NCBI GenBank assembly: GCA_963771075.1
Contig: CAVYSE010000003.1
Location: 96,001-160,000 of the forward strand
Source of the DNA: a candidate division FCPU426 bacterium
GTDB lineage: Bacteria; Oederibacteriota; Muellerivitia; Muellerivitales; Muellerivitaceae
Direction of reading: 5' to 3'
DNA: 64,000 bases
Below are positions 5,646 through 62,353 of the stretch, piece by piece. How positions within the stretch are numbered: the first letter of the stretch is position 1; every line of letters starts with the position of its first letter. The notes below the pieces were generated by a model that ran no database searches, was not told the origin of the DNA, and worked only from the letters and a program-made list of their open reading frames with translations. A program made the position numbers and the translations under genes.

Positions 5646-5699
5646 CCCCCTTTTGACCTTTCGGGCAAAAGGGGACATTGGGTCCCCGTCGTGGAAAAC

Positions 5700-6107
5700 C
5701 TATTTTCTGATAACAAAGTTTTCCATTGAAACAGTCAGACCCGGGGTGGCACGGCGTAGGGCGCGATCCTCGGTCACGCAAGGCACCCCAAGCTGCTGGG
5801 CCAACAAGACATATTGGGCGTCGTAGGCTGATATTTTGTAATGAAGGGCGATTTCTAAGGTTTCAATGGGCCCCAATTCAACTTCGTTTGGAAGGAAATG
5901 GGCATAAACATCTTCTAATGCCTTGGCCGCTTTTTCTTTGGTTAATCCGCCCTGCCGGACATAGGTGGTGAATATGTTGAGAATTTCATGGCGCCAAAGA
6001 CTCGGAAGTCGCCAATACGGATCCCGATCACGCACTTGGAGGGCTAAAGGCGTCAGCGACCCTTCGATAATGGAATAAGCTAAGACATTCGCATCCACGA
6101 CAATCAA
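5700..6107 (-). CDS. vapC: PIN-domain VapC toxin
   Basis: IVVDANVL..HEILN..ISAYDAQY..VTEDRAL; TTG start overlaps the antitoxin stop. Confidence 0.9.
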   Translation of the reverse strand: MIVVDANVLAYSIIEGSLTPLALQVRDRDPYWRLPSLWRHEILNIFTTYVRQGGLTKEKAAKALEDVYAHFLPNEVELGPIETLEIALHYKISAYDAQYVLLAQQLGVPCVTEDRALRRATPGLTVSMENFVIRK

Positions 6108-6322
6108 GCGCGGCCCTCTTGGATGGTCTTTTTCAACCATGCGGGAGTGATGGGAAATTTCCCCTTGATGGGTTCGGGCCAAGGACGCTCGGAATGCCCG
6201 GACAAAGCTTCCTCCAGGAGAGCCAACGCTTCTTTGGTCATAGACCTTCGATGTTGGGTCGCGAATTCCTTGAGTTTCTTATGCACTGGGCCCGGAACGT
6301 TTTTGATCAAAATATCAGGCAT
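6104..6322 (-). CDS. ribbon-helix-helix (FitA/Arc-like) antitoxin
   Basis: MPDILIKNVPGPVHKKLKEFATQHRRSMTKEAL; GGAGG RBS; coupled to the PIN gene. Confidence 0.88.
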   Translation of the reverse strand: MPDILIKNVPGPVHKKLKEFATQHRRSMTKEALALLEEALSGHSERPWPEPIKGKFPITPAWLKKTIQEGRA

Positions 6323-6563
6323 ATCCGCCTCCTATCCAAACGATATCATAACAATATCATTACAATAGTTAAGTTTCAAGGCTCTTCCATAACTCGGGTT
6401 GTCTGCTAGGCCTCCCCGTCGTGGACAAAGAAACTTTAGAAAAGGTCCTACTCGGGAATCCAAATGCAATGGTTTATTGGGCTTATATTCATATTATTTT
6501 ATCCACGGGACCCCAGACCCGGTTCGATTTCAAGTTGAGTCGTAAATTACAACAGAGGTTCCC

Positions 6564-7829: not shown

Positions 7830-8851
7830 GGGGTCAGTCATCAATTATTAATATTTACAAGTTGGAGGCAATCGGTTAGCTTGTCGGGGCTATGAGAAAA
7901 CCTAGACTTCTTTATCTCGGCGGCTTGTACCACGTGATTGCCAGGGGAAATCAAAGGCAAAAAACATTTTTGGCCAAGGTTGATTTTCTTAAATATCTGG
8001 AACTATTAGGCGAGCATTTGGAAACGCGTGAAATAAGGCTTTATGCCTATTGCCTGATGCCCAACCATGTTCATCTGTTGGTAGAACAAGCCGGTGATTA
8101 TCCCTTGTCCCGGTATATGCATCGGCTCCAAACGGCTTATACCCAATTCTTCAACCGGACCCATAAGAAAGTAGGCCATCTTTTTCAGGGTCGGTATAAG
8201 GCCATATTGGTGGACAAGGATTCATATCTGTTGGAATTGGTTCGATACATTGGGTTGAATCCGTTCAGGGCGAAATTGGAGGAAAAGCCGGGAATATATC
8301 CCTGGACCAGCCACCAACAATATTTGGGCCGAGAGAATAAGCCATTGGCGAAAGTGGAAGTTGAACCAGTTTTGGCTCTTTTCAGCAAAATGAAGAAAGA
8401 AGCCCAAAAGGCCTATTTGAGGTTCGTCAAGGAAGGCATGGGGGAAGGCCATCGGGAGGATTTGTATGATGTCCGGCAGGGACATATTTTGGGGGACCAG
8501 GAATTCGAACAAAAAGCGCATCAAAAGGCCCAACGTCCGCTGTCAGGTGCGAGTTTGAAGGTGAAGAAAACATTACCTGAAATATGGAAAGTACTTTTGA
8601 AACGGGAAGGGCATAGTGAAGATCCGACAGGCCATCGCCGAAGCCGTTTAATGGAAGAAGCGGCCTATCTAGCGTTTGAGGGTTGTGGGATAAGCCAAAG
8701 AGAGATAGGGGTATATTTTGGGAAAAATCAAAGCGCAGTCAGCCAGGCCATTAGGCGTTTGGAGATGAAGTGGAAAGAACAGCCCGGGGAAAAGGAGAAG
8801 TGGTTTCGATGGGCGCGACACTTAGAATATTAATAAATGATGACTGACCCC
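7830..8851 (+). mobile_element. RAYT/Y1 HUH transposase element with 26-bp terminal inverted repeats
   Basis: GGGGTCAGTCATCAATTATTAATATT (7830-7855) versus the inverted copy at 8826-8851, 25/26 identical. Confidence 0.85.
7892..8833 (+). CDS. REP-associated tyrosine transposase (Y1_Tnp) with C-terminal HTH
   Basis: YHVIARGN, YCLMPNHVHLL (HUH), GHLFQGRYK, RYIGLNP, YPWTS. Confidence 0.92.
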   Translation: MRKPRLLYLGGLYHVIARGNQRQKTFLAKVDFLKYLELLGEHLETREIRLYAYCLMPNHVHLLVEQAGDYPLSRYMHRLQTAYTQFFNRTHKKVGHLFQGRYKAILVDKDSYLLELVRYIGLNPFRAKLEEKPGIYPWTSHQQYLGRENKPLAKVEVEPVLALFSKMKKEAQKAYLRFVKEGMGEGHREDLYDVRQGHILGDQEFEQKAHQKAQRPLSGASLKVKKTLPEIWKVLLKREGHSEDPTGHRRSRLMEEAAYLAFEGCGISQREIGVYFGKNQSAVSQAIRRLEMKWKEQPGEKEKWFRWARHLEY

Positions 8852-22441: not shown

Positions 22442-22515
22442 TTGTTCACGATGGGCCTGGTTGGTTCTATTTAGCCAAATGGGTCATCCGTTAGGTTGCA
22501 CGACGGGGACCCGTC
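22442..22515 (+). repeat. degenerate GTCCAC/GTGGAC-family palindrome
   Basis: TTGTTCACGATGGGCC...CACGACGGGGACCCGTC. Confidence 0.5.
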
Positions 22516-22619
22516 TTTAAAAGTGGAATATGGGAAGTAAGTGGGAACTTACCGGGAATCTGGGAATTCCCTCTTGGGTTCGCGGTTCTAAACTCGTCCA
22601 ATGCGGGGATGCATAAAAG

Positions 22620-47577: not shown

Positions 47578-47657
47578 GGGGGGCCTTGTTTTCCCTTGCC
47601 AGATGAAATAACAATTCTAAAATTACTTTCATTCCATCCGCCTCAAGGAGACCACCC

Positions 47658-48113
47658 ATGCCCGATGTGACCTACCTGTCCAAATACGCGCCTTTTAAAA
47701 CCTTCGACGGGAACGACCTGGACGCCCTCGGGACCTTCGGGGTGGAAAAAGAGGTCAAGAAGGACGAGTTGGTCTTCGACGAGGATTCCAAGGGCGACAG
47801 CATGTATATCCTCAAGTCGGGGGCGGTGAAGATCCTGAAGAAGGTCAAAAACCAGGAAAACACCATCGCCGTCTTGAACCCCGGGGAATTTTTCGGGGAA
47901 ATGGCCCTGTTGGATGGACTTCCCCGGTCCGCCGCGGTTCGAGCCACGACCGATAGCGAGGTTTTCCAGGTGACCCTGGAGGGTTATCAAAAACTAAGGT
48001 TGGAAAAGCCCCATACCGCCTTGAAACTCATGGACATCATCATCAAGGTTCTCTCCAACCGCCTGCGCCAGGCCAACAAAAACCTGGAAGTCATCAGTTT
48101 CTGGATCGAGTAG
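47658..48113 (+). CDS. cyclic nucleotide-binding domain protein
   Basis: GDSMYILKSG, GEFFGEMALLDGLPRSA. Confidence 0.92.
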   Translation: MPDVTYLSKYAPFKTFDGNDLDALGTFGVEKEVKKDELVFDEDSKGDSMYILKSGAVKILKKVKNQENTIAVLNPGEFFGEMALLDGLPRSAAVRATTDSEVFQVTLEGYQKLRLEKPHTALKLMDIIIKVLSNRLRQANKNLEVISFWIE

Positions 48114-48309
48114 CACCAGCTTGCGGCTGACAGTTCGCAGTCGGCAGCCAGGCCGGTAGTGGTCGATTCCTTTTCTTTCCTGGGGACTGCCAACTCGATC
48201 GCCGACTGGTTTAAATAAAAAACCCCGGATGGGGTCCGGGGTTTCTAGAGGGGGGTTCCCCTCGGTGTCCGGCTGGGGGGCCGGAACACGGTGTTCTTTT
48301 ACAGTCGGC

Positions 48310-48600
48310 TCAATTGTTCTGAACCTTCTCCTGTTGTTTCTTGGCTTCCTGCTCCAATTGGCGTTGTCGTTTCTTTTCTTCCCGGTCCAAATCTTCCTGC
48401 AAGGCGGAAAGGACATTCGCGATACGGGCCTGAACATTGCGCAGGGCCCGGTCCCTTCCACCGCCCAGGTCGGGAACGGTGATCTCGCCAAAATTGTTGA
48501 TGTGCGCCCTGGCGAAGACCTTGCCCTTTTCTTCGAACAGAACCACCTCATATTCCTTCTCGTGGACCATCACCTTCAGTTTCTCGCCGGTTGAGTTCAT
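48310..48600 (-). CDS. small hypothetical protein with coiled-coil tail
   Basis: AAGGAG RBS; hairpin at 48221-48245 downstream. Confidence 0.65.
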   Translation of the reverse strand: MNSTGEKLKVMVHEKEYEVVLFEEKGKVFARAHINNFGEITVPDLGGGRDRALRNVQARIANVLSALQEDLDREEKKRQRQLEQEAKKQQEKVQNN

Positions 48601-48765
48601 GAAAAAAGCTCCTTGGGGTTTCTTTGGGAGCGACATAGTACCTTTCCAAAGGTTCTTTTGCAAGTTTCCGCATGGTGCCATCCCAAAAACTGCCTTGTTT
48701 TTGTTGCAACTTTTCCATCCCACGATAACAATAATCCCGTTCAATCCAATCTCGAGGTTCGAACC

Positions 48766-50300
48766 ATGCTCGCGAATATTCCAAGCGCCGCGCTCCTCGG
48801 CATCGACGCCTACCCGGTGGAATGCGAGGTGGACATCGCGCCCGGCCTCCCCACTTTCCAAACGGTCGGCCTCCCCGACGCGGCCGTCAAGGAATCCAAG
48901 GACCGGGTCAAGAGCGCCCTGACCAACAGCCAGTTTCCCTTTCCCGTCCAGAGGATCACCGTTAATTTGGCCCCCGCGGATACGAAAAAGGAGGGTCCTT
49001 CTTTCGATCTGCCCATGGCGGTGGGCATCCTGGTGGCGTCGGGCAAGCTTCCCGCCCAGGCGGTGGAAGGCTGTTGGATGGTAGGGGAACTGGCCCTGGA
49101 GGGCAGGGTAAGGCCCGTCCGGGGAAGCCTTCCCATTTCCCTGGCGGCCCGGGACGCCAAGGCCCGGGTCCTGATGGTTCCGCCCGAGAACGGCAAGGAA
49201 GCTGCGGTGGTGGAAGGAACCCAGGTGATCCCCGTGCGTTCACTTAGGGAAGCCTATGAGTTTCTCGCCGGATTCAAGAAAATAAACCCCATTCAGGTGG
49301 ACCTGAACGCGGAGTTTAAACAGCTCTCGTCTTACAAAGTGGATTTTTCGGACGTCAAGGGCCAGGAAAACGCGAAAAGGGCCCTGGAAGTGGCCGCCGC
49401 GGGGGGGCATAACATCCTGCTGGTAGGACCTCCGGGATCGGGCAAGACCATGCTTGCCAAGCGCCTGCCCACCATCCTTCCCCCGCTCACGCTGGAAGAG
49501 GCGATCCAGACGACCAAAATCCATTCCATAGCGGGCACCCTCAGCCGCCGAAAAGCGCTCCTGGCCACCCGGCCCTTCCGTTCGCCCCACCACACCATTT
49601 CCGATGCCGGCCTGATCGGGGGGGAACCATTCCCCGCCCAGGGGAAGTAAGCCTCTCCCATCACGGGGTGCTTTTTTTGGATGAATTCCCCGAGTTCAAC
49701 AAGAACGTGTTGGAGGTCCTGCGCCAGCCCTTGGAAGACGGGATGGTCACGATATCAAGGGTCCAGTCCAGCCTGACCTTCCCCGCCCAATTCATGCTGG
49801 CGGCCGCGATGAACCCCTGCCCCTGCGGCTACTTCACCGATCCCTCGCGGGAATGCGTCTGCACGCCCCGGCAGATCCAAAAATACTTGAGCCGCATCTC
49901 CGGGCCCTTATTGGACCGCATCGACCTGCACATCGAGGTACCCGCCCTCAAGTGGAAGGAAATCGCCGATACCACCCCCGCGGAACCTTCCGTCTCGGTG
50001 CGTGAAAGGGTCTGCCAAGCCAGGGTCATCCAAGAAAAAAGGTTCGAAGGAACCGGCATCCACAATAACGCCCAGATGACCCCCGCCCTCCTGCGGGAGC
50101 ACTGCCGCCTGGACGGGCCATCCCAAAACCTTCTTCAAAACGCCATGGAAAAATTCGGCCTCTCCGCCCGGGCCTACGACCGCATCCTGAAGGTCTCCCG
50201 CACCCTCGCCGATCTTGACGGAAACCCGAACTTAGAATCCCGCCACATAGCGGAAGCTATCCAATATCGTAATCTCGATCGAAGCGTGTGGCGAAATTAG
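48766..50300 (+). CDS. comM: YifB/ComM Mg-chelatase-like ATPase, frameshift in G-run at ~49620
   Basis: [38 protein letters not shown]; one extra G restores [10 protein letters not shown]. Confidence 0.93.
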
Positions 50301-50973
50301 GTCATTATCAAAAAAAATCCGTCGATCTTCTGAAAAACATCAGGTGTTCCTCATTCAAGTCCTGACCCTTAAAATTCACTACCGAAAATATTTTCGTGAG
50401 GCCTTCCGTTTTTTGTTTGTGAATATTTTTACTCGATGGTCAACAATTCATCACCGCCTTAAATATGAATATTTCTTATTGTCACGCTTGCACTTCGAGA
50501 CAAAAAGAAAAGTATTATTCGCGCTAACCATTCGGGGCTTTTCGATCGCGGTATAATGCGCCTGTTGCTACTACGAGGTGCGCCGCCATGAACTCATTCG
50601 CTTACTCAAGCCAAGTCCTTCCGCTGTCCCTCACTCCGCCCTAGTTTATTTTCCCATACCAAGCCAGCGTTCCCTCCCATTCCCCGCGGCGCTCCGTAAT
50701 CGGGCCCGGAGGGAGGAATCTCCTTTTGAACCCGTTTCACGCAAGGAAAAATCACGCCATGTTTTTAAAACTATCTTTCACATCCAGGACGGAACCTGCC
50801 GATCCACTTCCCGGGCCAAGGTCCCGTTACAAGCCGGGGAGGCGGTTAAGGCCACCCCCTGGCCGGTTTCCATCCGAAAGCGGGGCCCCATCGCTGGGGG
50901 GCGGCGCAAACGATGGGGCTGAAAATGTCAAAGTGTGCCGGGAAAGAGCCGACTCCAGGAAGGCGGAAACAGC

Positions 50974-51396
50974 ATGAAGACGGCAACGATGTTGAAACCG
51001 AAAAGCGGGTACGGACCCAAGGCGGGGCCGATCCGGAGCCTATTATTGACGAAAAGAAGTGGTTTCCGGGCTTATGCCGGGGCCTTTATGCGCCGGGCGC
51101 TGCGCCGTTGCGCTATCCAGGTCATCGCCGGCGAGGCCGCCGCCCTGGAGACCCTGCGGCTGGCCAAATTCCATTTCGTCATCATCGACATGGATCTGTT
51201 GGGAATGGGGGGCGGGGCCCACTTGGAGCAATGGGGCGACCGGGTGGACCGGATGGAGAAAACGGAATTTCTTTTCATAGGCCCGGCTGTTCCGGACCTG
51301 AAACTGCGGTTCACCAACTACAACAACGTCTGGTTCCTGGAATACGACCTGCCGAAGGATGTGGTCGCCAGTCTGGTCAAGTGCCTGCGGGAATGA
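50974..51396 (+). CDS. hypothetical protein, degenerate receiver-like
   Basis: ALETLRLAKFHFVIIDMDL. Confidence 0.5.
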   Translation: MKTATMLKPKSGYGPKAGPIRSLLLTKRSGFRAYAGAFMRRALRRCAIQVIAGEAAALETLRLAKFHFVIIDMDLLGMGGGAHLEQWGDRVDRMEKTEFLFIGPAVPDLKLRFTNYNNVWFLEYDLPKDVVASLVKCLRE

Positions 51397-51499
51397 GTGG
51401 ATTGGGAGCCACTCGGACCCTTCGCCGCCTGGTCCAGGGCGGTTTCGGGAGGAAGGGAACCCCGGACGTCAGCCACCCTTAACGAAAGGAAACAGAGCC

Positions 51500-52438
51500 A
51501 TGATGATCAAACGCAGTGATGCCGGAAAATTGGTGACCTTGCCGATCAAGCCGGATTGGGGTCCCGGGAAGATCGTGAAGATCGAGGCCGGATATGCCTA
51601 TATCCGCTTCCGGGATTGCGAGGACAGGATGGCGAAAAAATACTCGGTTACCGAGAATCCGCTGGCCTTGTCCCAGGTCCAGACGGACGCCGTCTTGGAT
51701 GACCTCATCCAGCAATCCGAGAAGAAGAAGCGCATGCGCAAGCCCGCCGAACCCATCCGTCGGGTCACGTTCCAGGAGGCCGTCGTGCTTTTCAAGGCGA
51801 AGTATCCCCAGGCCTTCGGAGACGCCCTTTATAAAGGAGGGGCCCAGGTAGGTGGGCAGTACGCCATCGAGGATTTGGCCCGAACCTTCCATTCCTCCTT
51901 CGGGGACGGCCAACTGCGCAAAATGGTTGACAACCATTCAGCGAGGGTCATCGCGGACCGGGCGGTGGCCCTCCTGGACCGCCAGGACCTGATCTACCGG
52001 GGTGAGCTGAAGAGCTTCAAGAATCTGCTCAAGGATGAGGCCCAAACCCTGGCCTATTTCAGGGCGCTGGCTTTCGCGCTGGAGGCCGGGGCCGTCACCG
52101 AGACTTCCATGCGGCCCTATTTCGAGGCCGTGAACGCCTGCCCAATACCGGGGTTCGCCAAATGGCCCAACGCGACCCTGTTCCTTTTCCTGGCCCGGCC
52201 CGAATGCCACATGCTCCTGAAGCCCCAGGTGACGAAAAGATTCGCCGCGATGCTGGGAAACGCGCTGATTTACGAGGCCCATCCCAACTGGATGACCTAC
52301 GTGAACCTGTTGGAGATGTCGGCGGGAACCTTGGGCATGCTGAAGCCCCTTGGCGCGAGGGATTACCTGGACCTGTTGACCTTCATGCAGGTCGTCCAGG
52401 AAACCGCTTCCCAAAAAGAAGCCGCGGGCTTGAACTGA
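51500..52438 (+). CDS. DUF3553-like domain protein
   Basis: KPDWGPGKI N-terminal motif; KWPNATLFLF..LKP..RDYLD C-terminal region; AAAGGA RBS. Confidence 0.65.
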   Translation: MMIKRSDAGKLVTLPIKPDWGPGKIVKIEAGYAYIRFRDCEDRMAKKYSVTENPLALSQVQTDAVLDDLIQQSEKKKRMRKPAEPIRRVTFQEAVVLFKAKYPQAFGDALYKGGAQVGGQYAIEDLARTFHSSFGDGQLRKMVDNHSARVIADRAVALLDRQDLIYRGELKSFKNLLKDEAQTLAYFRALAFALEAGAVTETSMRPYFEAVNACPIPGFAKWPNATLFLFLARPECHMLLKPQVTKRFAAMLGNALIYEAHPNWMTYVNLLEMSAGTLGMLKPLGARDYLDLLTFMQVVQETASQKEAAGLN

Positions 52439-52658
52439 CGGGCTCCTTGTCCAGGGCGACGCCTATTGCGAGCCAACCAGGCGAGAAGTGAGGTTTGGCT
52501 TCTCCGAATTTTAAAACGGCTGGGGCAAGCCGAGGACTGGATCGATGGGTGCCGGGGCGGGCTAATTAAGAGCCCCGGCACTTGGGTCCTGGTTTCTTGC
52601 CAGTTTAAAAGAAAAACGAACAACAAAATGCCTGTCCACCATGATCCATTATTCATTT

Positions 52659-52724
52659 TGTCCACGACAGGTCCCCGCCATGTTGCATGTGCTTGCGTTT
52701 AGCTACATGGCCCGTTGTGGATAA
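52659..52724 (-). repeat. GTCCAC/GTGGAC palindrome, long form
   Basis: Minus strand TTATCCACAACGGG CCATGTAGC..GCAACATGG CGGGGA CCTGTCGTGGACAA. Confidence 0.85.
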
Positions 52725-52748
52725 CCAATTCCAGGTTTAAGGCGCGAG

Positions 52749-53075
52749 CTATTTATTACGGCGGGCTAAAGCGGAAAACTGATAAAAATATTTTCGTAGG
52801 TCGGAAGTTACGGGTCCGGGTTCCATGATGCGGCAGGCTTCCCCCCTTAACCGCGCTATTTCCTTGAGGCGGTGCCTCCATCGTGGATCCGCAAGGGTCA
52901 GGTCCAAAAGCTCCAACATCCGGTCAAATGCTTTTTGCGCCTGTTCCGGATTGTTTTTATTTTTCCAGTTCAAGGCCCGTTCGTACTCACTACCCACGTT
53001 GCCCAACTGTTCCGGAAGGGTCAGGGTGAACCAACGGCCCGAGGATAAACCCGGATGCAAGGGTTCGGGGCTCAT
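52749..53075 (-). CDS. conserved helical hypothetical protein (typical DUF5674 partner)
   Basis: LSSGRWFTLTLPEQLGNVGSEYERA..ELLDLT..LKEIARLR. Confidence 0.8.
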   Translation of the reverse strand: MSPEPLHPGLSSGRWFTLTLPEQLGNVGSEYERALNWKNKNNPEQAQKAFDRMLELLDLTLADPRWRHRLKEIARLRGEACRIMEPGPVTSDLRKYFYQFSALARRNK

Positions 53076-53199
53076 AGCACTAGTTTCCTTACGATTGACT
53101 CGATTTCCCGTCTGATACCATATCCCCAAAACACATTTTGGCGATTTCCCTCAAGCGTTGGAGCGTTATGGGGGCGGTGATCAGTTCAATATTGTCCAT
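53072..53199 (-). pseudogene. DUF5674-like gene with internal deletion
   Basis: N-terminus MDNIELITAPITLQRLREIAKMCFGDMV fused out of frame to C-terminus IRREIESIVRKLVL*, whose stop overlaps the next ATG. Confidence 0.6.
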
Positions 53200-53255
53200 A
53201 AGTCCGGATTATAACATTCTTTCCCGAAAATCATGTTTAGACCCCCTATCCTTTC

Positions 53256-53322
53256 GTGATCCGAGATGGGTCCCCGCCATGCAGCATGCGCTTGCCCTTA
53301 GCTACATGGCCCGTCGCGGACC
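53256..53322 (-). repeat. GTCCAC/GTGGAC palindrome, long form
   Basis: Near-copy of 52659-52724. Confidence 0.85.
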
Positions 53323-53331
53323 ATTAACAGC

Positions 53332-53508
53332 CTAAGGTTTATAAACGAGCATCGCCTTGATATACATGGCGATGGCGCCCACAATCCAGCCCGCGAAAAA
53401 TATGGCGACGTCCCTGGTTTGTGCCGGATTACCCTTGAGCCAAAATCCGCCGAGAACGACGGCCATCACGATGACCACCGCGATCCCCCAACTGACGAAT
53501 GGATTCAT
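53332..53508 (-). CDS. 58-aa two-TM membrane protein (not in ORF track)
   Basis: MNPFVSWGIAVVIVMAVVLGGFWLKGNPAQTRDVAIFFAGWIVGAIAMYIKAMLVYKP*; GGAGG RBS. Confidence 0.75.
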   Translation of the reverse strand: MNPFVSWGIAVVIVMAVVLGGFWLKGNPAQTRDVAIFFAGWIVGAIAMYIKAMLVYKP

Positions 53509-53528
53509 AACGCAACCTCCGATTTGGC

Positions 53529-53558
53529 CGTCCTCAATGGTTACTCCCCGCGGACAAG
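53529..53558 (-). repeat. GTCCAC/GTGGAC palindrome, short degenerate form
   Basis: Plus strand ..CCCCGCGGACAAGGTTT, compare CCCATCGTGGACAAGGTTT at 57059. Confidence 0.55.
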
Positions 53559-53586
53559 GTTTTAGGCATTTTTTGAAACTTCAAAT

Positions 53587-54291
53587 TTACATTTTTTCTT
53601 TTACGCCCTTCATTGCTTTTTCTGTCATCGGGGCGGTTTTTGACATGCCGTTGATAACTTCAAATGTTAGTAAAAGTGCCACACCCGGATTCATTACTTC
53701 ATGAATCTTCTCCAACAGATCAACCAAGCTGCGAACGGAAGCCCTTAACGCCTCTTTTTTATTTTTTAACGGACCCAAAATCGCATCCACCTTAGGGCGG
53801 GTTTCGTATCCGATTTTCAACGGAATCACGAAGGGATTATTATCCGGGGGCACAGATAATGGCACCTTGCCCCAATCCTCCGGTTTTCCAATCCCGGCGG
53901 CGTAATTTTCTAATACTTTCTTCATCGGGGGAAAGTCGCCTTGGGCGTAAACGCCTGGCGTTAATTGGTCTCGCAGCATTCCTACAACCGAATCCGAGGG
54001 AAACGAATCTAATTCCTTGCTCAGGGATTCGCCGTAAATAATCGAATTGACCTTATCGGAAAACACTCTCGCCCCGGGGACCAAGTCGTGATCACGAAGG
54101 GAGAAATCCCCCGCTAGGTCTATGCACCGTTCCGCGACAATGGTTGAGATTAGGGCTAGGGCATCTTCTGAACGAATTCGTTTATTTTTCTCGGACAAGG
54201 CTTCAATGACAAAGGCGGTAAGTCTGGCTTGGGCTATATCAGGTTTTGAGGAAAATCCCGTCATATCCATCAGTAAATCTTTAATTCCCAT
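53587..54291 (-). CDS. hypothetical protein (234 aa)
   Basis: Lower-GC ORF with GGAGG RBS, bounded by repeats. Confidence 0.8.
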   Translation of the reverse strand: MGIKDLLMDMTGFSSKPDIAQARLTAFVIEALSEKNKRIRSEDALALISTIVAERCIDLAGDFSLRDHDLVPGARVFSDKVNSIIYGESLSKELDSFPSDSVVGMLRDQLTPGVYAQGDFPPMKKVLENYAAGIGKPEDWGKVPLSVPPDNNPFVIPLKIGYETRPKVDAILGPLKNKKEALRASVRSLVDLLEKIHEVMNPGVALLLTFEVINGMSKTAPMTEKAMKGVKEKM

Positions 54292-54308
54292 ACGACCTCC
54301 TATATTCC

Positions 54309-54338
54309 TTGACCACGACAGGTCCCCATAGGGGGACT
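54309..54338 (-). repeat. GTCCAC/GTGGAC palindrome, half copy
   Basis: TTGACCACGACAGGTCCCC is 18/19 identical to 52659-52677. Confidence 0.75.
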
Positions 54339-54339
54339 A

Positions 54340-54774
54340 TTATCCGTTCCGATTGGCAGAGCGGGCATGCCGAACATAGCTTTCCACTTCCAATTGGGTA
54401 TGTGTAGCGATTTTGTCCATGTCCGCATCGGCATGAAGCAGGATCAGATGGTGTTTATGCGCTTTATAGGCGATCAAAGCATCAACTGTTTTTATCTTGT
54501 GCCCTTTTTGGCGATGTTCCCGCACCCACTCGGCCGCCTCCACCCACTCATGGGGAAATAAGGGGAAAGTGTGAAGCGCGGATAAATGAGCCGCCAACAG
54601 GGCCGAATGAGCCTGGGATTTCTCCGAGGAAACAAGCTCAAAGAAGATAGGGGATGTGATGGCCGCAAGATTGTTTTCCACCAATTTCTCCACCCTAGCC
54701 CGTATAACCTCCAACGGGTGAGAACCTAAGGCAAAAATCCACGCGGAACTATCGATCAGGTAAAGTTTATTCAA
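54340..54774 (-). CDS. vapC: PIN-domain VapC toxin
   Basis: LIDSSAWI, FFEL, TVDALIA, LHADADM. Confidence 0.9.
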   Translation of the reverse strand: MNKLYLIDSSAWIFALGSHPLEVIRARVEKLVENNLAAITSPIFFELVSSEKSQAHSALLAAHLSALHTFPLFPHEWVEAAEWVREHRQKGHKIKTVDALIAYKAHKHHLILLHADADMDKIATHTQLEVESYVRHARSANRNG

Positions 54775-54968
54775 CCCCTGGACTCTTTTAGGGATTTAGG
54801 CGTGAGATTAAGGCGGAACTTATCGAAATCCTTCACGAAACTCTTCCTTTGGATTTCCGACAATAAGTTGCGCAAGCCCGCCTCAAGGACTTCCCGTTGA
54901 GTAGCGATTCCCGTTTCCCGCTTGGCCTGTTTTAAAAGGCCTTCATCGATATGGGTTGTGATTTTCAT
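54771..54968 (-). CDS. vapB: VapB antitoxin
   Basis: MKITTHIDEGLLKQAKRETGIATQREVLEAGLR; GGAGG RBS; 4-nt overlap with the toxin. Confidence 0.88.
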   Translation of the reverse strand: MKITTHIDEGLLKQAKRETGIATQREVLEAGLRNLLSEIQRKSFVKDFDKFRLNLTPKSLKESRG

Positions 54969-54981
54969 ATTAACCTCCGTG

Positions 54982-55004
54982 AGTATGGCATTGCTTGCCA
55001 TACT
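54982..55004 (-). promoter_or_regulatory. inverted-repeat operator of vapBC
   Basis: AGTATGGCA-N5-TGCCATACT perfect 9-bp IR next to a TATAAG -10-like box. Confidence 0.6.
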
Positions 55005-55064
55005 TATATCAAATTCAGGGGGTATAGACAATCGGGCAAAATTACAGACCAGGCCCAAATTCTT

Positions 55065-57044
55065 GCAGAGTAGAGCGCTGGCGCGTATGCCTTAGAGTAC
55101 GGTGGCGAATCCAACCCTTTCGGATTGGGCCTCAGTCCGGCTCTCATCACCACGTTTCCAGCGCCCCCTCATCAAACCGTACGTGACCTTTTCGATCATA
55201 CGGCTTTCCGACAACCTTTCAACCGGCAGCATTCAAGGCAAAAGCTGGAATCCAGTTCAAACCAAGGCGTTTCACTTCCTCGATCGACCATGTTCGTCCT
55301 TCCCAGGCGTACTTATGCCTCCGAAACAAAGTCAGCCTTTCGAGTACGTAAAATTGAAGCTTGGAAAAGTATGGCTGGCTGTCCCCAATTCGGAAATAGT
55401 TGGCCCACCCCCTTAACACCGGGTTCAAAGCCTTCGCTACATCCTCCATTGGAGATAAGAGCCGCTCTCGGCCCGCCGTCATCTGCTTCACTTTCTCGGC
55501 GATTTTCTTCATGGCCTTCCGGCTCGGCCAGCTCAGGCAACAGGTCTTACCCAATCCTACCACCGGCATACCTACTCGAAAGTGGAACCCAAGGAAGTCA
55601 AACCCTTCCTTCCCAGGCCCCATTTCCACCAGCCGTGTCTTTTCGGGGTGCAGTTCAAGCCCTAGTCGTCCCATCAATTCCTTGATGACTTCCAGGCTCT
55701 TTTCCGCATGGGCTTGGCTTCCGCACAACACCACAAAATCGTCGGCGTAGCGCACCAGCCTACCCAGTTTCCTGTGCCTCTTATTCCAAACCTTGTCCAG
55801 CAAGTGAAGGTAAACATTGGATAACAGCGGTGAGATCACCCCGCCTTGCGGTGTCCCTCGGAGAGTCGGCGTAAGCCTTCCTTCCTCAAACACACCCGCC
55901 TTCAGCCACCCTCGGATCAGTTTCAAAACCTTCCGGTCACTGATCCTCTGGCGCACCAGCACCATCAGTTTGTCGTGGTCGATGGAATCGAAATACTTCC
56001 GAATATCTCCATCCACCACCCATCTGTACCCGCCATTGATCCACTTCTTGATCTCCCGGTGGGCCTGCTGGGCTCCGCGTTTTGGCCGAAATCCAAACGA
56101 GCCTTCCAGAAAGTCCGCCTCAAAGATGGGTTCCACCACCTTCCGGCAAGCCGCTTGAACTACCCGATCCCGAATTACCGGGATTCCCAACGGTCTCTTG
56201 CTTCCATCAGGCTTGGGTATTTCCACTCGTCTCACAGGTTTAGGCAGATACTTCCCAGCTTTGAGTTCTTCCTGGATGCCCTTCAGGAATGGAATAATTC
56301 CCACCTTCTCTTCGATCCATTCCAGCGTTTCCCCGTCCACTCCTCCTTGGCCTTTATTAGCCTTCACCTGTTTCCATGCCGCTGTCAGGACATCCCATCG
56401 GGTCATCCTGTCATGCAGTACATGAAATCTCCGGCTTGGGCTCCTCTTGGCCGCTCGGTATAGCGCCCTTTGAAGGGTTCGCGCCTTGTCTTCGGAGTTG
56501 TTGGCCCTTTGGGGCATGCTCCAGCGCCTCCCTTTTGAAGGTTGCTTGGTTGAAGCAGGGGTCCTTCCCTCCAGGTGGTTTTGTTGTCCACCCTTCACAG
56601 GTATTGTGACCCCCTCCGACTTCCTCCCGCCCTTGCCCCTTTTCGGTTTTAGCCTTATAGCGGCAAGTCTTTTGGCGGGTAGGATCTCCCAGGTTGCTTG
56701 CAAAGCCTTTCCAGCATTCCGTTCCCCATACGCCGGAGGACTTGCCCCGCTTGCTCCAGATTCTTCAGCGGGATCGTGGCCTTCGCCGGTAGACACGCGG
56801 CTCGGCATCCTCTTGCACCTTTCGGTGTCCCATTCACGACGCGGCAGGATTCACTTGATGTTGCGGACTGCTAGATTGTTCCCTCACTGAATGAGGTTTA
56901 TGACCCCGTTTCGGGCAGAACCTCTCGGTCCTACGCCGGGGGCTGACTTCCAGGCTCTCTGGCGATTACCTGGTCAGGATTTGGGCTGGCCCTCTTCGGC
57001 CTACTCCCTCACCTGCTGGCTCTACAAACCTTCGCTGGCACGAT
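55065..57044 (-). mobile_element. group II intron
   Basis: D5 AAGCCGTATGATCGAAAAGGTCACGTACGGTTT (55174-55207); D6 with A 7 nt from the end; EBS1 GTCTAC at 56789-56794; excision restores a perfect 13-bp stem. Confidence 0.92.
55219..56517 (-). CDS. ltrA: group II intron reverse transcriptase/maturase, no HNH domain
   Basis: RPLGIP, GTPQGGVISPLLSN, RYADD, GFDFLG, LNPVLRGWANYF. Confidence 0.96.
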   Translation of the reverse strand: MPQRANNSEDKARTLQRALYRAAKRSPSRRFHVLHDRMTRWDVLTAAWKQVKANKGQGGVDGETLEWIEEKVGIIPFLKGIQEELKAGKYLPKPVRRVEIPKPDGSKRPLGIPVIRDRVVQAACRKVVEPIFEADFLEGSFGFRPKRGAQQAHREIKKWINGGYRWVVDGDIRKYFDSIDHDKLMVLVRQRISDRKVLKLIRGWLKAGVFEEGRLTPTLRGTPQGGVISPLLSNVYLHLLDKVWNKRHRKLGRLVRYADDFVVLCGSQAHAEKSLEVIKELMGRLGLELHPEKTRLVEMGPGKEGFDFLGFHFRVGMPVVGLGKTCCLSWPSRKAMKKIAEKVKQMTAGRERLLSPMEDVAKALNPVLRGWANYFRIGDSQPYFSKLQFYVLERLTLFRRHKYAWEGRTWSIEEVKRLGLNWIPAFALNAAG

Positions 57045-57073
57045 GTCCACGATGAGGACCCATCGTGGACAAG
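57045..57073 (-). repeat. GTCCAC/GTGGAC palindrome interrupted by the intron
   Basis: CTT(55062-55064)|GTCCACGATG-AGGACC-CATCGTGGACAAG. Confidence 0.88.
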
Positions 57074-58278
57074 GTTTAAATTATAGCCGTTTCATATTTT
57101 TGAAATCCCTTGTAGGGGAAAGCGGGAGGCATTTGGGTTCCAGCTCATCGTGAATTCGTAAATGATTTTCATGGACTTGGTAATGGCGTGGTCCCCAGCC
57201 CCGGGGCCGTCCTTCCCAACTGCCTGAGCAATTTTCCATTCCCGGTTTGCTCGTCCTTGTTCACGCCCAGGCCCCAAAGGTAATCGCCCAGGGGGATTCC
57301 GCCGCAGGTCGAGGGCCTTTTCCAGACCATCGGGTAAAAGCGCAGTTTCACCTCCTCCGACCGCCACACCGGGCCAGATCTTGGTTCTCGGGAGGGATAG
57401 GGGGGCCAAAGCCTTTGGGGTTCTTCCCCCTCGGCCAGGGTTTTCTTGGGGCGACCGGGCTTGAGCCCGGTCCCAGTGCCCAAGTCGGCCAGATGAATGG
57501 CGGCACTCACGGAAATACCCCAAATTCCCTTATTTTGATTTGCGGAGTATCCGCCAATCAAATCCCTTGATTTCGAGATTCAAGAGAGGAAGGAGACCTA
57601 ATGCCTCTCGGATAGATCGCTGAAGCCCTTCCCCCTGCCGCAAAAGAACTGATTTACCAAAATCTTCAAAAAACCCTTAAAAACGATCCCCCGATTCGGG
57701 GGACGAAAAATAAGGGTTTTTTGATAACCGAGTACCATCTGCTGGCTTTGGCTGATCTGGTGGATCCGCTCCAGGTCGAAAAGCCCTTCACCTGGCTCAA
57801 AAGTGGGTTCAGGGTCCAAATCGGTTAAATGGGTTACAGAAGCCTCTGAAATCCCTTTATTTACCATCGTACAATTTGTACGAAGTACCTCCTCGGGAGC
57901 CTCGTTTAAGAGGGTAAGACGCCATAAGCTTTGCTAACTCTTGGTCTAGTCATCCGCAACCGCTTGGAAACCTGATCCAAATTTAAGGTCAACTCGTCCT
58001 TGATCCGGTTCTCGATGGCCTGGTAGGCGGCCCACCATCCCCTATCCCTGTTGATTTTGTCTCAAACTGATAAAAAGGCGTATATTGGATTTCTTGAAGG
58101 GACAGGGGATGAACTATAAAAGTAACAAGCAGTTGGCGGTTGGCAGGTAAGACCTAACACCAACATCCAACACGACCCATCAGCCCCCTGACTGAGGGCG
58201 ATAAAAACCATCGAGACGCCAATCCGCCAAGCCTTTCGATGCGATAAAGCTTACCTGGCGGGAAGGGCTTATATAAAA

Positions 58279-58554
58279 ATGGGCACCAAGGCTGACCGGA
58301 ACAAAATCATCACCCGTTATGTAGATGATTTCCTTAAAAACCAGGGCCTTATTCTTTTCGAAAAGTGGTATTCGGTCCTGCAAAATCTGAATTCCCCCCA
58401 AAAAGTCCATGACTTTGAAGTCCGCGACAAAATGCTCGAGGAAATCCTTGCCTTAGTGGCCCAGGATAATTCCCTGATTTTGAACAAGAAGGACAAGGGT
58501 ATGGTGGAGGAGCTTTTGAACAAGTTCCTTTTGGGATCAAACCTTTTGAAATAA
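58279..58554 (+). CDS. hypothetical protein
   Basis: 91-aa ORF with plausible helical composition. Confidence 0.55.
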   Translation: MGTKADRNKIITRYVDDFLKNQGLILFEKWYSVLQNLNSPQKVHDFEVRDKMLEEILALVAQDNSLILNKKDKGMVEELLNKFLLGSNLLK

Positions 58555-58732
58555 AAGTCAACCAAGGATTGGGACCAAGCTTTTTCGGTTTTTTAGGGGG
58601 GGTAGGGTAATGCCACTACGGGTTGTGGACTAGTGTGTTAAGTGTTGGCAGGCCCCTCGGTTTTTGGTGGGGCAGGCTCCGCTGGAAATCCGCTTGTGGA
58701 TGGATTGATTCAACCAACGGGATGGGGATTAA

Positions 58733-59089
58733 TTAAATACGTTCACCTCTGAGGGGATCCAGGTTCCGAATGGTCCTCAGAACCTCGTTACTCGTTATTA
58801 TAAATCGCATCCCGCAATCATCCTCTTTGACCCAAACCACCTTGGCGTATAAATCGAAGGATTTTTCCATTTCCAAAGCTAAATCCACTATGAGAATGTC
58901 GCTTTCTTTAAGAGGAATGGGCGTTTTTAGCTTAAGACCACCCTCGCTGATATTTTGAGCGCGTCCGCGAAAAGGGGTTTTGGCGGTTTGATAGATATTG
59001 AGCGACGGCGAGGGTTGGACGAGATAGATCTGAATGGATTTTAAGTATTTGAACCGTTCATGAAGGCGTTCGTTTTTTGTTTTACTCAT
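58733..59089 (-). CDS. PilZ domain protein
   Basis: RLHER (RxxxR) and NISEGG motifs, AKVVW, CGMRF. Confidence 0.88.
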   Translation of the reverse strand: MSKTKNERLHERFKYLKSIQIYLVQPSPSLNIYQTAKTPFRGRAQNISEGGLKLKTPIPLKESDILIVDLALEMEKSFDLYAKVVWVKEDDCGMRFIITSNEVLRTIRNLDPLRGERI

Positions 59090-59696
59090 TCCCGGGTTAC
59101 CTGGCACAGTTTTTTCAAGCGAAAGTGTTGAAAATAGGTTGGCGCTTATTGACCGCAATGGTAGAGGAGGTGTCCAGAGGGTCAGCCCCCTTGATCGACG
59201 GAGGCTTCACTTCCCTGTCCAGATAACCGGGTTCTTTATAGGTTATTTAGTTTTTTGGCGCAATAAACTTTTTTAATGGCTTGGAAGTTCATACAAGAAT
59301 TATGTAAAGGAAATACATATTTGTAGGAGAGCGTAAGACCTTAGGTTGGTTTAGCCTATTTTGTTTTGCGGTTATTCATCCTAACAATGTATTCGGCCTC
59401 GATAGCCCAATGGATTTAAACAGTTCTCGTGCAGCCTGATCGCTTCTGCTTTCTCCCCAAGGGGCCTGCTTCCACTTCTGGGCCCGGCCCTGAGCAGAGC
59501 AAAACTCTTTCGAAGGGCCCCTAACCGTCCTTAGCTTAGAGGCTCAACGCCAACCCGCCGAAGTTCCCGAAGTAACCCGCCGACAGGTTCCAATCGGGCC
59601 CGAAAATGAGCTGGAACCCCGCTCCCACACCGTAAAGCATGTGGGCGGGTGGGGTAATGCCACAGCCAACCCCATGAGATTTTTCAAGCCCCCCCT

Positions 59697-60155
59697 TTAA
59701 AACCCTTTGGGAACAATCTTCTTCATCCAAAATGATTCGACATATTTCATGGCCATCATGAAGGGTTCCGGGTCCGGCGGCTTCACGAAATACAAGTCGG
59801 CCTTGAAGTCATGGGCCTCGATCACATCCTGCTCCCAAGTGGAGGTGGTCATGACTACGACGGGAATATCCGCGAATTCCGGGTTTTCCTTTATTTCACC
59901 CAGGATAATCCTGCCGTCCTTGCGGGGCAGGTTCAAATCCAGAAATACCAGGTCGGGCCGCTGGACGCGGGTGTGGCGACCCTTTTGGCTGAAATAATCG
60001 GAGGCATCCTGGCCATCCCGGATGAGGACAGCGTGATTCGTGACTTCCGAGCCCTTCAGGAACTCCAGCAATAAATAAGCGTCCCCCACATTGTCTTCCA
60101 CCACCAGAATTTCAATCGGCCGTGCCGCGCCCGAAATTTCCGTCTGAACGCTCAT
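59697..60155 (-). CDS. single-domain response regulator (Rcp1-like)
   Basis: ILVVEDN, PDLVFLDLNLPRKDG, FVKP. Confidence 0.92.
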   Translation of the reverse strand: MSVQTEISGAARPIEILVVEDNVGDAYLLLEFLKGSEVTNHAVLIRDGQDASDYFSQKGRHTRVQRPDLVFLDLNLPRKDGRIILGEIKENPEFADIPVVVMTTSTWEQDVIEAHDFKADLYFVKPPDPEPFMMAMKYVESFWMKKIVPKGF

Positions 60156-60613
60156 GGCTTTCCCCCCGAATGACCCCAAAGCTTCTCGAGCCAAAAATCC
60201 TCTATGTATTTCATGATTCCCAGGTAGTCCCCCATGTCCATGGGCTTAACGATAAAGAAGTTGGCGTTGTTGGCGTAAGACTGCTCCAGGTCTTTCGGGT
60301 CTTTGGAGGAAGTCATGATCAGGACGGGGATTTCGCAAAGTTCCCGGTCGCTCTTGATCGCCCCCAGCAATTCCCGGCCGCCCATTTTGGGCAGGTTCAA
60401 ATCCAGCAGGATCAGGTCCGGCTCACCCGCGTTGGGGTAAGGTTCCTGGCGGCGGAGGTAATGGAGGGCGTCCAGCCCGTTGCGCGCCACGTTCAGCCGG
60501 ATGGGGAACCGGGAGTATTTGATCATCTCCTTCATCAAGACGACGTCCCCCAGGTTATCCTCCACCAGCAGGATCTGGACTTCCTTGGGCTTCACTTCCA
60601 CTTGATAGGCCAT
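60152..60613 (-). CDS. single-domain response regulator (Rcp1-like)
   Basis: ILLVEDN, PDLILLDLNLPKMGG, IVKP, FW. Confidence 0.92.
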   Translation of the reverse strand: MAYQVEVKPKEVQILLVEDNLGDVVLMKEMIKYSRFPIRLNVARNGLDALHYLRRQEPYPNAGEPDLILLDLNLPKMGGRELLGAIKSDRELCEIPVLIMTSSKDPKDLEQSYANNANFFIVKPMDMGDYLGIMKYIEDFWLEKLWGHSGGKP

Positions 60614-61724
60614 GCTCCCCTCCTTTGGTTTTCCGAGGGATCGTAAAGCAAAAAATCGACCCCTTGCCCGGTTCCGACTCGACCCAAATCCTTCCCTTGT
60701 GCTGCTCCACGATCCGCTTGCATAGCGCCAGCCCGATGCCGGTGCCCGGGTATTGGTCCCGGTGGTGCAGGCGCTGGAACACCTCAAAAATCTTGTCGAA
60801 ATATTGCGGTTCGATTCCGATGCCATTGTCTTTCACCCGGATCACCCATTGGTCCGGTTCCTCCCAGGCGAACAAATGGACCCGGGGCTTTTTGGCGCCA
60901 TGGAACCGGATTGCGTTTTCAAGCAGGTTTTGCAAAAGAAGCCCCATTTGGGCGGAATCCGCCTCCACCTCGGGGAGGAAACCGTGGGTGACCTCCGCCC
61001 CTTTCTCCTCCACGAGCAGCTTCAGGTTTTCCATCGTCTCGTGGAACACCCGGATCAGGGGGACGGGCCGCCGGACCAGGGACTGGGCCCCTAGGTGGGT
61101 ATATGAAAGAAGGTCGTCGATGAGCTGCTGGAGGCGGTGGGCCGCGTCCAGGGTGATGCGCAGGTACTCCTCGATGCGGTGGTCCATATGGTCGATCAGG
61201 TGGGTTTTCAGGAGCTGGACGAAACAGCTGATCATCCGGAGGGGTTCCTTCAAGTCGTGGGACACCGCGTAAACGAACTGCTGGAGTTCCGAATTGGACC
61301 GGGCCAGTTCCAGGGCCTTTTCCTCCACTGCCTGGGTCCTTTCCCGGACTTTTTGCTCCAAAGACTCGTTCATTTCCCGGAGGCGCCCGTTGGCGGCCCT
61401 CAAATCCTCCGCCCGTTCCCGGAGGACCGACAGGGTGTCCTGGTAGCCTCGGTGGAGGGTATGGAAGGGGGAAAGGGCTTCCCGGAGGAAATCCCCGGCG
61501 GCTCCGAGGGCCCAGGCCCCAGGGTCCCATCCCTCCAGGGCGGAAAAAATCCCCCTCAGGGCCTCATGGTGGGCGTCCGCCAGTTCCAGGGGGCCCAGCC
61601 CCTCCGCCAGGGCCTTCCGGCCCAGCTCATAGCCCCGCCTCAGGGCCCCCTCGTTCCGGGTTTGCAGGTAGCCCATCAGCGCCTGGGAATAGTCGTCCTG
61701 GAGTTTCACTTGGAGCGGGCTCAT
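60555..61724 (-). CDS. histidine kinase with RsbU N-terminal-like domain
   Basis: YSQALMGYL..YELGRKALAEGLGPLELADAH; SHDLKEPLR, NLLENAIRF, GTGIGL. Confidence 0.9.
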   Translation of the reverse strand: MSPLQVKLQDDYSQALMGYLQTRNEGALRRGYELGRKALAEGLGPLELADAHHEALRGIFSALEGWDPGAWALGAAGDFLREALSPFHTLHRGYQDTLSVLRERAEDLRAANGRLREMNESLEQKVRERTQAVEEKALELARSNSELQQFVYAVSHDLKEPLRMISCFVQLLKTHLIDHMDHRIEEYLRITLDAAHRLQQLIDDLLSYTHLGAQSLVRRPVPLIRVFHETMENLKLLVEEKGAEVTHGFLPEVEADSAQMGLLLQNLLENAIRFHGAKKPRVHLFAWEEPDQWVIRVKDNGIGIEPQYFDKIFEVFQRLHHRDQYPGTGIGLALCKRIVEQHKGRIWVESEPGKGSIFCFTIPRKTKGGEHGLSSGSEAQGSPDPAGGG

Positions 61725-62353
61725 GGCTTCCCTCCCAGGTAACGGACGGCCAACACCAGCGCGTCGTCCGTGTCTTTCTTGTTTTGGGCCAGGATGCGCT
61801 CGGCGATTCGCGGGGGCGGCTCGTGCAGGCTCTGGATGAGGGCCTGGGAAAAATTACTGCGCAGCCCGTCCGTGGCGAGGATGAGCGTGTCGCCCGGCAT
61901 GACGGGGATCACCGTGGCCCGCAGTTCGGGCAGGTTGAACCCCACCCCCCCGGATCGCAACAGCAGGTACTCGGCGGCGGGGCTGGCGTTGGCGCCGGCC
62001 CGGTAGAGAAGGCCCTCGACGTTCCCCACCCCGGCCCAGGTCATGGTACCGTCCGTTTTATTGAAGGAAGCCAGGCTCATCACGACCCCCCGGGTTTTCT
62101 GGGCGGCCTCGTGGCAGTGCCGGAAAAGGGAGATCGGCGATTCCTGGGCGAAATCCGAGAGGGTGGCCGCCACCGTGCGGCCCGCCACGGCCGCGTCCGT
62201 CCCGTGGCCCAGGCCGTCCACGACCGCCGCCAACGCGCCCTGGGGAAAGCACTTCACCACGTAGGTATCCCCGGACTCGCTCTCTCCGGCCATCGTTTGG
62301 GAAGCCACCCCCCACTCGATGCAATCGCAGCGCCCGGAATTTCCCACGTTCAC
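61721..62353 (-). CDS. rsbX: RsbX-like PP2C/SpoIIE phosphatase
   Basis: ESGD, VVDGLGHG, GVGNV, ATDGL, DDAL. Confidence 0.85.
   Translation of the reverse strand: MNVGNSGRCDCIEWGVASQTMAGESESGDTYVVKCFPQGALAAVVDGLGHGTDAAVAGRTVAATLSDFAQESPISLFRHCHEAAQKTRGVVMSLASFNKTDGTMTWAGVGNVEGLLYRAGANASPAAEYLLLRSGGVGFNLPELRATVIPVMPGDTLILATDGLRSNFSQALIQSLHEPPPRIAERILAQNKKDTDDALVLAVRYLGGKP

Follow-up and report, generated by a model that had tools for sequence, protein, structure and literature searches.

What strings the genes near the right end of this stretch between copies of a single repeat, and which enzyme might move them? We analysed a window of 64,000 nucleotides from a candidate division FCPU426 bacterium (contig CAVYSE010000003.1). 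Between positions 52,658 and 57,072 it contains four minus-strand gene units separated by five copies (s1 to s5) of one short palindromic site. A first-pass annotation, made from the letters alone, had read this locus as an integron-like cassette array built on a folded hairpin site that differs from attC and is possibly processed by an HUH/RAYT enzyme. Our results showed that the array in the window belongs, in decayed form, to a gene-cassette array system that is family-wide. We consider it probable that the cassette system is real and likely has a shortened serine recombinase as its driver, with units exchanging at the central GA of the site. Rows of swappable accessory-gene units together with a serine enzyme would be integron-like gene capture from different parts, since the site is a single palindrome of 30 bases and the enzyme is likely a shortened serine recombinase.

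The 30-bp site and the units that it bounds

The consensus of the site is TTGTCCACGAYGGG GA CCCRTCGTGGACAA, which consists of 14-bp inverted arms flanking a single asymmetric dinucleotide (30 bp). The whole assembly of the source genome (G000; C-numbers are its contigs, L-numbers are loci of relatives or metagenomes) was scanned, which gave 120 site positions versus none in the reversed genome; a weight matrix admitting half-sites gave 138. For the neighbour analysis 125 sites were kept at stricter thresholds. These formed 96 neighbour pairs within 5.5 kb, versus a random mean of 17.7 and maximum of 30, and 88 of the 96 pairs were co-oriented. The sites formed 36 clusters, which are spread over many contigs and have unrelated flanks. 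The centre was counted in occurrences that were selected on arm positions 2-11 alone and had an intact partner arm. It was GA or TC in 60/66 cases in the source genome and 221/228 in relatives' loci (281/294 together). Positions 12-14 and 17-19 are palindromic, and the asymmetry is found at 15-16 only.

The site was present in 17 of 24 genomes of the same family and in none of 16 outside it; five of five further family genomes also carried it. No site was detected in viral contigs with either pattern.

We then characterized the units between sites. The source genome and its relatives yielded 194 non-redundant units, 21 with an intron and 2 without any open reading frame (ORF). Among the remaining units, the longest ORF was sense to GA in 161 and antisense in 10. 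The units had a median length of 804 bp and a GC content of 0.47, and in 71 of 107 single-gene units the stop codon lay within 30 nt of the next site (median 19 nt). Pfam was scanned with 119 of the 131 array ORFs, the other 12 being short, antisense or overlapping insertion sequence (IS) frames. Toxin-antitoxin families accounted for 29/119, 63/119 had no match at E 1e-8, and no core-gene family of integrative and conjugative elements (ICEs) was observed.

Units also change places. Among 214 distinct units we found 24 full-length homologous pairs, and both neighbours differed in 21 of them. A 386-bp unit was 100% identical in the source genome and in G024, which belong to different genera. 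Two units of the window behaved in the same manner. The unit of the 58-aa protein was found at 85% identity in L076, between two intact sites and with other neighbours, and its 82% homolog in L075 ends at a site; the vapBC unit (81% identity) lay between intact or near-intact sites in L004 and L059, again beside other neighbours. In six pairs of at least 95% identity, the last difference in the upstream site lay at position 12 or before, and the first difference in the downstream site at position 17 or beyond. Because differences stop by 12 upstream and begin at 17 or later downstream, the crossover most probably lies at positions 13-16, around GA. The first-pass reading of a non-attC cassette system with turnover at a fixed repeat position, co-oriented genes and many toxin-antitoxin cassettes was thus borne out.

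A long form of the site carries an inner hairpin of 37 nt. It has 13 copies in the source genome and none in the relatives' loci examined. All 13 copies lie within sites, and a free miniature inverted-repeat transposable element was therefore ruled out. The same hairpin, never found free, recurs in the left arms of sites at the ends of many different cassettes, which suggests that left arms are copied from a template during cassette making or conversion.

Other elements were also seen at the sites. An IS110-family element and another multicopy element stop exactly at the left edge of sites (C5:86948, C9:3203; C21:2852, C5:95990, C3:1763, C13:179), so the site is a target of several unrelated mobile elements. 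Pairs with a shared left flank were dropped as evidence for cassette exchange, because several are ends of the IS110 or other multicopy element abutting a site. A near-identical group II intron is present in the window and at 11 other places of the source genome. All 12 5' ends that were found come after an arm of the site, which may be at either of the palindrome's ends, and a second intron type appears to start past a site at C8:88545. Half-sites reading GA-GG were considered as captures at ribosome-binding sites (RBS); this idea found no support, as an obvious start codon at RBS distance was recognized by eye in only 1/13. At C26:129393-144425, close to the end of the contig, a portion of an array of 17 sites occurs a second time in inverted orientation, which is either a real inversion or an assembly artefact.

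A short serine recombinase beside terminal sites

The first-pass annotation had pointed to a recombinase gene linked to such arrays as the thing to look for, and a short serine recombinase adjoining a terminal site was found. It is encoded by the only intact serine recombinase (PF00239) gene of the source genome (C8:80002-80835, 277 aa), which is not on the contig of the window. The gene stands tail-to-tail with the cassettes of an array, and 13 nt separate its stop codon from the final site there. In the same genome, three 5'-truncated copies each end 13 nt from a terminal site, and the sites beside them share the same weakened right arm. Between the stop codon of the recombinase gene and the terminal site stands the 13-bp palindrome TCAGTNNTACTGA (L064:2299-2311, equal to G000:C8:80836-80848), which was found in 10 of 31 family genomes; it is possibly an accessory or regulatory site. 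A terminal variant of the site has a weaker right arm and this adjoining palindrome. In G002 and G014 the remnant consists of the last codons, the 13-bp palindrome and the site. The terminal sites of two metagenome loci (L086:1213 and the end of L085) have variant arms and keep the 14-GA-14 layout.

This arrangement was also observed outside the source genome. In relatives, all nine clade genes or remnants with a 3' end adjoin a site or half-site in the same convergent layout. In metagenomes both clade loci adjoin a site, which in one case is partial, lies at a contig end and was recognized by eye. Together with the source genome, 15 of 15 clade 3' ends adjoin a site or half-site; four fragments without a 3' end (L074, L079, L081, L084) and one weak match (L083) were left unscored. 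By comparison, no site was held by any of six family loci with full-length relatives or of 78 outgroup metagenome loci. Several of the former end in tRNA-like sequence, as judged by eye.

The 277-aa protein contains the serine catalytic domain PF00239 and the recombinase domain PF07508 only. Its 19 database clusters (68-96% identity) are all 275-283 aa long and lack the zinc-ribbon family PF13408 and a C-terminal CxxC, and the next matches have at most 61% identity. A tree was built on 60 rows, comprising the 21 short proteins, 5 longer relatives from the family and every third one among the remaining listed matches; in it the short proteins form a single branch with 100/100 support. Their sequences break off at the linker, right ahead of the CxxC that full-length relatives have, and the catalytic-domain motifs RVSS and DRLYR are invariant in the clade. 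The dN/dS was 0.06-0.19 in 10/10 pairs of intact short genes, with dS near saturation. The best fold matches of the predicted structure were the SPbeta, Bxb1 and phiC31 integrases. Splitting of the gene by its own site was ruled out as the cause of its shortness: the stop precedes the site by 7-37 nt in 5/5 intact genes.

The gene is often found in the company of mobile-element genes. In the source genome it flanks an ICE-like block with a TraG/VirB4-type P-loop gene, ArdC and DUF2958, and a homologous block in G024 has the recombinase gene beside it. In G044 the gene lies with ArdC- and RadC-like genes in a unit of ~7 kb between two co-oriented sites. ArdC- and RadC-like genes accompany it in G020, and no such neighbours were seen in G004. 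A plasmid collection gave only distant recombinases, the best-ranked at ~32% identity and all under 60%.

Other recombinases were located as well. All eight tyrosine recombinase genes of the source genome are at least 26 kb from a kept site or on site-free contigs, and the tyrosine recombinases of relatives gave no array-linked candidate. A single XerC-like gene of 345 aa lies in an AT-rich stretch (C6:114198-115235); no XerC/XerD pair was found in this genome, and the gene is possibly a one-enzyme dimer-resolution system. Four related tyrosine integrases of 366-371 aa are encoded at C7:97523, C7:108122, C27:55311 and C3:383213. Three of them are beside tRNA genes, and integrases of similar size recur in most family genomes. 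Y1 genes of RAYT-like type (311-317 aa; window 7892-8833 and about 15 other places in the source genome) behave as a multicopy IS and bear short terminal inverted repeats instead of repetitive extragenic palindromic (REP) hairpins.

The array in the window

All five repeat copies of the first-pass annotation are present after small coordinate corrections (Table 1), and so are the four minus-strand units between them.

Table 1. Positions of array features in the window
Feature	Position	Strand	Remarks
Second mini-array	5669..6428	-	two sites (5669 and 6399)
s1	52658..52724	-	67-bp long form: left arm, 37-nt internal hairpin, GGG-GA-CCT core, right arm
Cassette 1 gene	52749..53075	-	108 aa (126 aa from TTG at 53129), conserved hypothetical
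Broken upstream ORF of cassette 1	53075..53199	-	36 codons, then short out-of-frame tail
s2	53257..53323	-	67-bp long form with decayed arms
Cassette 2 gene	53332..53508	-	58-aa hydrophobic protein
s3	53528..53557	-	decayed, with indels; scores under weight-matrix threshold
Cassette 3 gene	53587..54291	-	234-aa hypothetical; RBS 7 nt past s4
s4	54309..54338	-	core and right arm kept, left arm lost
vapC, cassette 4	54340..54774	-	PIN domain, PF01850
vapB antitoxin, cassette 4	54771..54968	-	PF09957
9-5-9 palindrome upstream of vapB	54982..55004		seen in the sequence
Group II intron at end of s5	55065..57042	-	529-aa reverse transcriptase/maturase ORF at 55219-56808
s5	57043..57072	+	28/30 consensus matches; GA core on + strand

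The final site of the array is s1, and s5 is the best-preserved of the five copies. The GGGGA asymmetry had been placed on the gene strand in the four copies that have it; the GA core of s5 is inverted relative to s1-s4. The decayed s3 is homologous to an intact site upstream of the same 58-aa cassette in L076. The stop codons were confirmed to lie near the next site, with gaps of 24 (s1), 8 (s2), ~29 (s3) and 1 nt (s4), and the RBS of the 58-aa and 234-aa genes are within ~10 nt of the upstream site. Pfam confirmed vapB and vapC, and the palindrome before vapB is likely the toxin-antitoxin operator that had been proposed. The absence of integron parts was also confirmed: neither RYYYAAC nor GTTRRRY occurs on either strand around the five copies, and the best TIGR02249 score in the whole genome was 41.8 bits versus a cut-off of 265, so no IntI passed the cut-off.

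In contrast, the "DUF5674-like" label of the pair in cassette 1 was not confirmed. PF18924 had no match in the window, the fragments matched nothing, and the upstream ORF is broken. The 108-aa, 58-aa and 234-aa proteins had no Pfam family above cut-off. The 108-aa protein had an Atlas score of 0.96, only to clusters without a name, and the 234-aa protein had a weak Atlas lead and nothing more. The group II intron, which separates s5 from the vapBC unit, is a passenger of the array.

Circular cassette junctions were not detected: contigs of four sequencing runs over window 47000-62000 gave no cassette-skipping or circular joint among 15 of 26 joints listed, and contigs drop rare forms. In four relatives, the region around the gene to the left of the array had no sites, and its synteny was too poor to define an empty site. 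Elsewhere in the window, a lone weak site lies on the + strand at 22494-22523. At 57574-57848, in part of a multicopy element right of the array, 275 bases were swapped for 33 others in the contigs of all four runs.

Competing explanations, mechanism and relation to known systems

Is the short recombinase a plain integrase of an ICE or an integrative and mobilizable element (IME), with the arrays arising by tandem accretion of decayed elements (cis-mobilizable elements, CIMEs) at its att site? The ICE-like neighbours of the gene in G000 and G024 and the site-bounded unit of G044 fit this explanation, and CIME accretion is on record in the accessible parts of PMC5704250 and PMC3146451. However, the units are gene-sized (median 804 bp), with stops a median of 19 nt from the site and a polarity of 161:10, and identical units move singly between arrays and genera. 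The arrays stand at many unrelated loci with no single attB, the 119 array ORFs include no ICE core-gene family, and the enzyme belongs to a uniformly truncated clade, unlike the ~540-aa DsiB. We regard accretion as unlikely. It is still less probable that the lone XerC-like protein, as a tyrosine recombinase of the host, works on the site in the style of dif modules and that the serine gene merely landed beside sites. The site does parse as 11+8+11, a single XerC-like gene was found in this genome instead of an XerC/XerD pair, and arrays exist in genomes without the short recombinase. But within the would-be spacer only positions 15-16 are asymmetric, and near-identical pairs differ at position 12 in one case and at 17 in another. 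None of the eight tyrosine genes is near a kept site, three of the four phage-type genes are beside tRNA genes, and 15/15 short-clade 3' ends adjoin a site.

The folded single-stranded hairpin cut by an HUH/RAYT (Y1) enzyme, as first proposed, now seems highly improbable. The site is able to fold, its long form has an inner hairpin, group II introns home to its ends, and 4 of the 20 Y1 matches in the genome have a site within 1.5 kb. Yet the arms did not covary (positions 11 and 20, Fisher p 0.86), G-T wobbles occurred on both strands (139 vs 167), and arm complementarity was not above that of random left-right pairing (p 0.10 linear, 0.23 circular). Exchange probably takes place at the centre, where the hairpin loop would be; none of the Y1 genes adjoins a site, the smallest distance being 629 nt, and the RAYT-like copies are bounded by ends of their own. 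An Rfam scan gave intron families only. Repeats that are REP-like elements or terminators gathering in variable regions, with no part in gene movement, are hardly credible. They are GC-rich palindromes just past stop codons, but TTTT follows within 10 nt downstream in just 9/91 full sites, the clustering and polarity are strong, and homology between shared units stops inside the sites.

Several observations weigh against a cassette system driven by the short recombinase. The link between enzyme and site is one of position. Sites are carried by 24 of 31 family genomes and an intact short gene by only 5 of 31; the site-rich G003 (99% complete), G018 and G041 gave no match to the recombinase clade, and most arrays have no enzyme nearby. 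The window array, which has no recombinase in or near it, may itself be inert, because s5 is inverted and s3 and s4 are decayed. In a protein search, a clade gene or remnant was found in 8/24 site-bearing genomes versus 0/7 site-free ones, a weak association among kin that are not independent. Many of the outgroup metagenome loci are short contigs with limited flank. The 24 homologous pairs are not independent either, one 631-bp cassette giving 6 of them. Two informative pairs carry the 13-16 interval, because pooled arm inheritance was flat at the upstream site (right arm 33/66 shared, left 28/60) and partly supportive, in the expected direction, at the downstream site (left 30/75, right 22/102). 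An 8-bp tyrosine-type spacer would also contain this interval. The predicted structure was of moderate quality (pLDDT 67, pTM 0.44). Finally, in the available part of PMC5499577, a coiled-coil-deleted LI integrase integrates poorly, so a still shorter enzyme may need help.

With these points taken into account, we still favour the short serine recombinase and propose the following mechanism. A recombinase dimer would bind the double-stranded site, with one recombinase domain per 14-bp arm, and would cut at GA. The non-palindromic dinucleotide would set the polarity of the site, so that a unit between co-oriented sites would be excised as a circle. The circle, in which the 3' left arm of the unit would be joined to the 5' right arm of the same unit, could re-enter any other site. 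According to the available part of PMC3783163, the zinc ribbon of large serine recombinases recognizes the outer portion of att sites and places the coiled coil in position; according to PMC5499577, LI integrase loses its selectivity between site types when the coiled coil is deleted. An enzyme without either element may not tell attP/attB from attL/attR, which would fit a single site type doing every job, and units could be excised and inserted without a directionality factor. The integrase of PLE, as far as the accessible text of PMC6002521 describes it, does not lack the zinc ribbon. In several genomes the gene would ride on an ICE-like element and seed arrays that outlast the decay of this carrier, which would fit an intact gene in 5/31 versus sites in 24/31 family genomes, although the difference between these two counts is at the same time the chief weak point of the proposal. 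Arrays without the enzyme, such as that of the window, would be served in trans.

Integrons are the textbook gene-cassette system, and their chemistry is unusual in that a tyrosine enzyme acts on folded single strands. In the parts of PMC9024848 available, integrons and attC clusters that have no integron-integrase (CALINs) resemble the present arrays in their co-oriented, mostly single-gene units with little room for promoters, their many toxin-antitoxin cassettes, an enzyme gene at the end of some arrays and many arrays without one, and group II introns that target the sites. Unlike integrons, the present system has no IntI and no attC motifs, and its symmetric 30-bp site gives no sign of selection for folding. 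The crossover probably falls at the centre of the site, so that each neighbour would contribute one half of a junction, and the serine recombinase gene lies tail-to-tail at the downstream end of the array rather than divergently at the head.

Gene modules bounded by short palindromic recombination sites are also known as pdif/dif modules, which are served by XerC/D. The present arrays likewise have gene modules between short palindromic sites; they differ in that a search of the genome gave no XerC/XerD pair and that the sites have no tyrosine recombinase linked to them. The large serine recombinases (LI/A118, Bxb1, phiC31, SPbeta), as described in PMC3783163 and PMC5499577, share with the short enzyme the catalytic and recombinase domains, and their sites share inverted arms around a non-palindromic central dinucleotide. 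In contrast to them, 19/19 clade clusters have no zinc ribbon or coiled coil, the site is 30 bp instead of 40-50 bp, and one site type occurs in more than 100 copies without an attP/attB pair.

The nearest known process, within the available text of PMC5704250, PMC13739063 and PMC3146451, is the tandem accretion of ICEs and CIMEs, of composites of the staphylococcal cassette chromosome (SCC; CcrAB/CcrC) and of the Dehalococcoides ssrA islands (DsiB). These also have tandem att-bounded units, some of them enzyme-less, SCC and the ssrA islands also have serine recombinases, and the enzyme gene likewise lies beside an att site on a mobile element. They differ in being kilobase-scale islands at one chromosomal gene with full-length enzymes, whereas here gene-sized units stand at many loci and the stop codon of the enzyme gene precedes the site, which leaves the gene unsplit. 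Our literature search found no published description of such a cassette system in the sources it covered, with most subscription journals outside coverage; 10.1101/2024.07.02.601686 and PMC8138268 were unrelated.

In conclusion, we lean, with less assurance than for the cassette system as such, towards the reading that the integron was invented a second time, independently. In this reading, a tRNA-targeting large serine integrase would have lost its zinc ribbon and coiled coil, taken a symmetric 30-bp double-stranded site and become a cofactor-free, bidirectional cassette shuffler; its ICE-like carrier would seed arrays at many loci, with single-gene and toxin-antitoxin cassettes swapped across the genera of one family. 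A natural enzyme with only catalytic and recombinase domains on a polar 30-bp site would be a direct test of what the zinc ribbon and coiled coil do, and the short recombinase could serve as a compact engineering tool. If the proposal is true, this would be a minimal natural Cre-like serine recombinase of 277 aa, and surveys of the IntegronFinder type would miss a whole class of cassette reservoirs. In these arrays it would also be simpler to study how promoterless cassettes originate, and a cassette-making route independent of attC folding would be implied. Cassette capture would then have evolved more than once, the second time with serine chemistry on a short double-stranded site.

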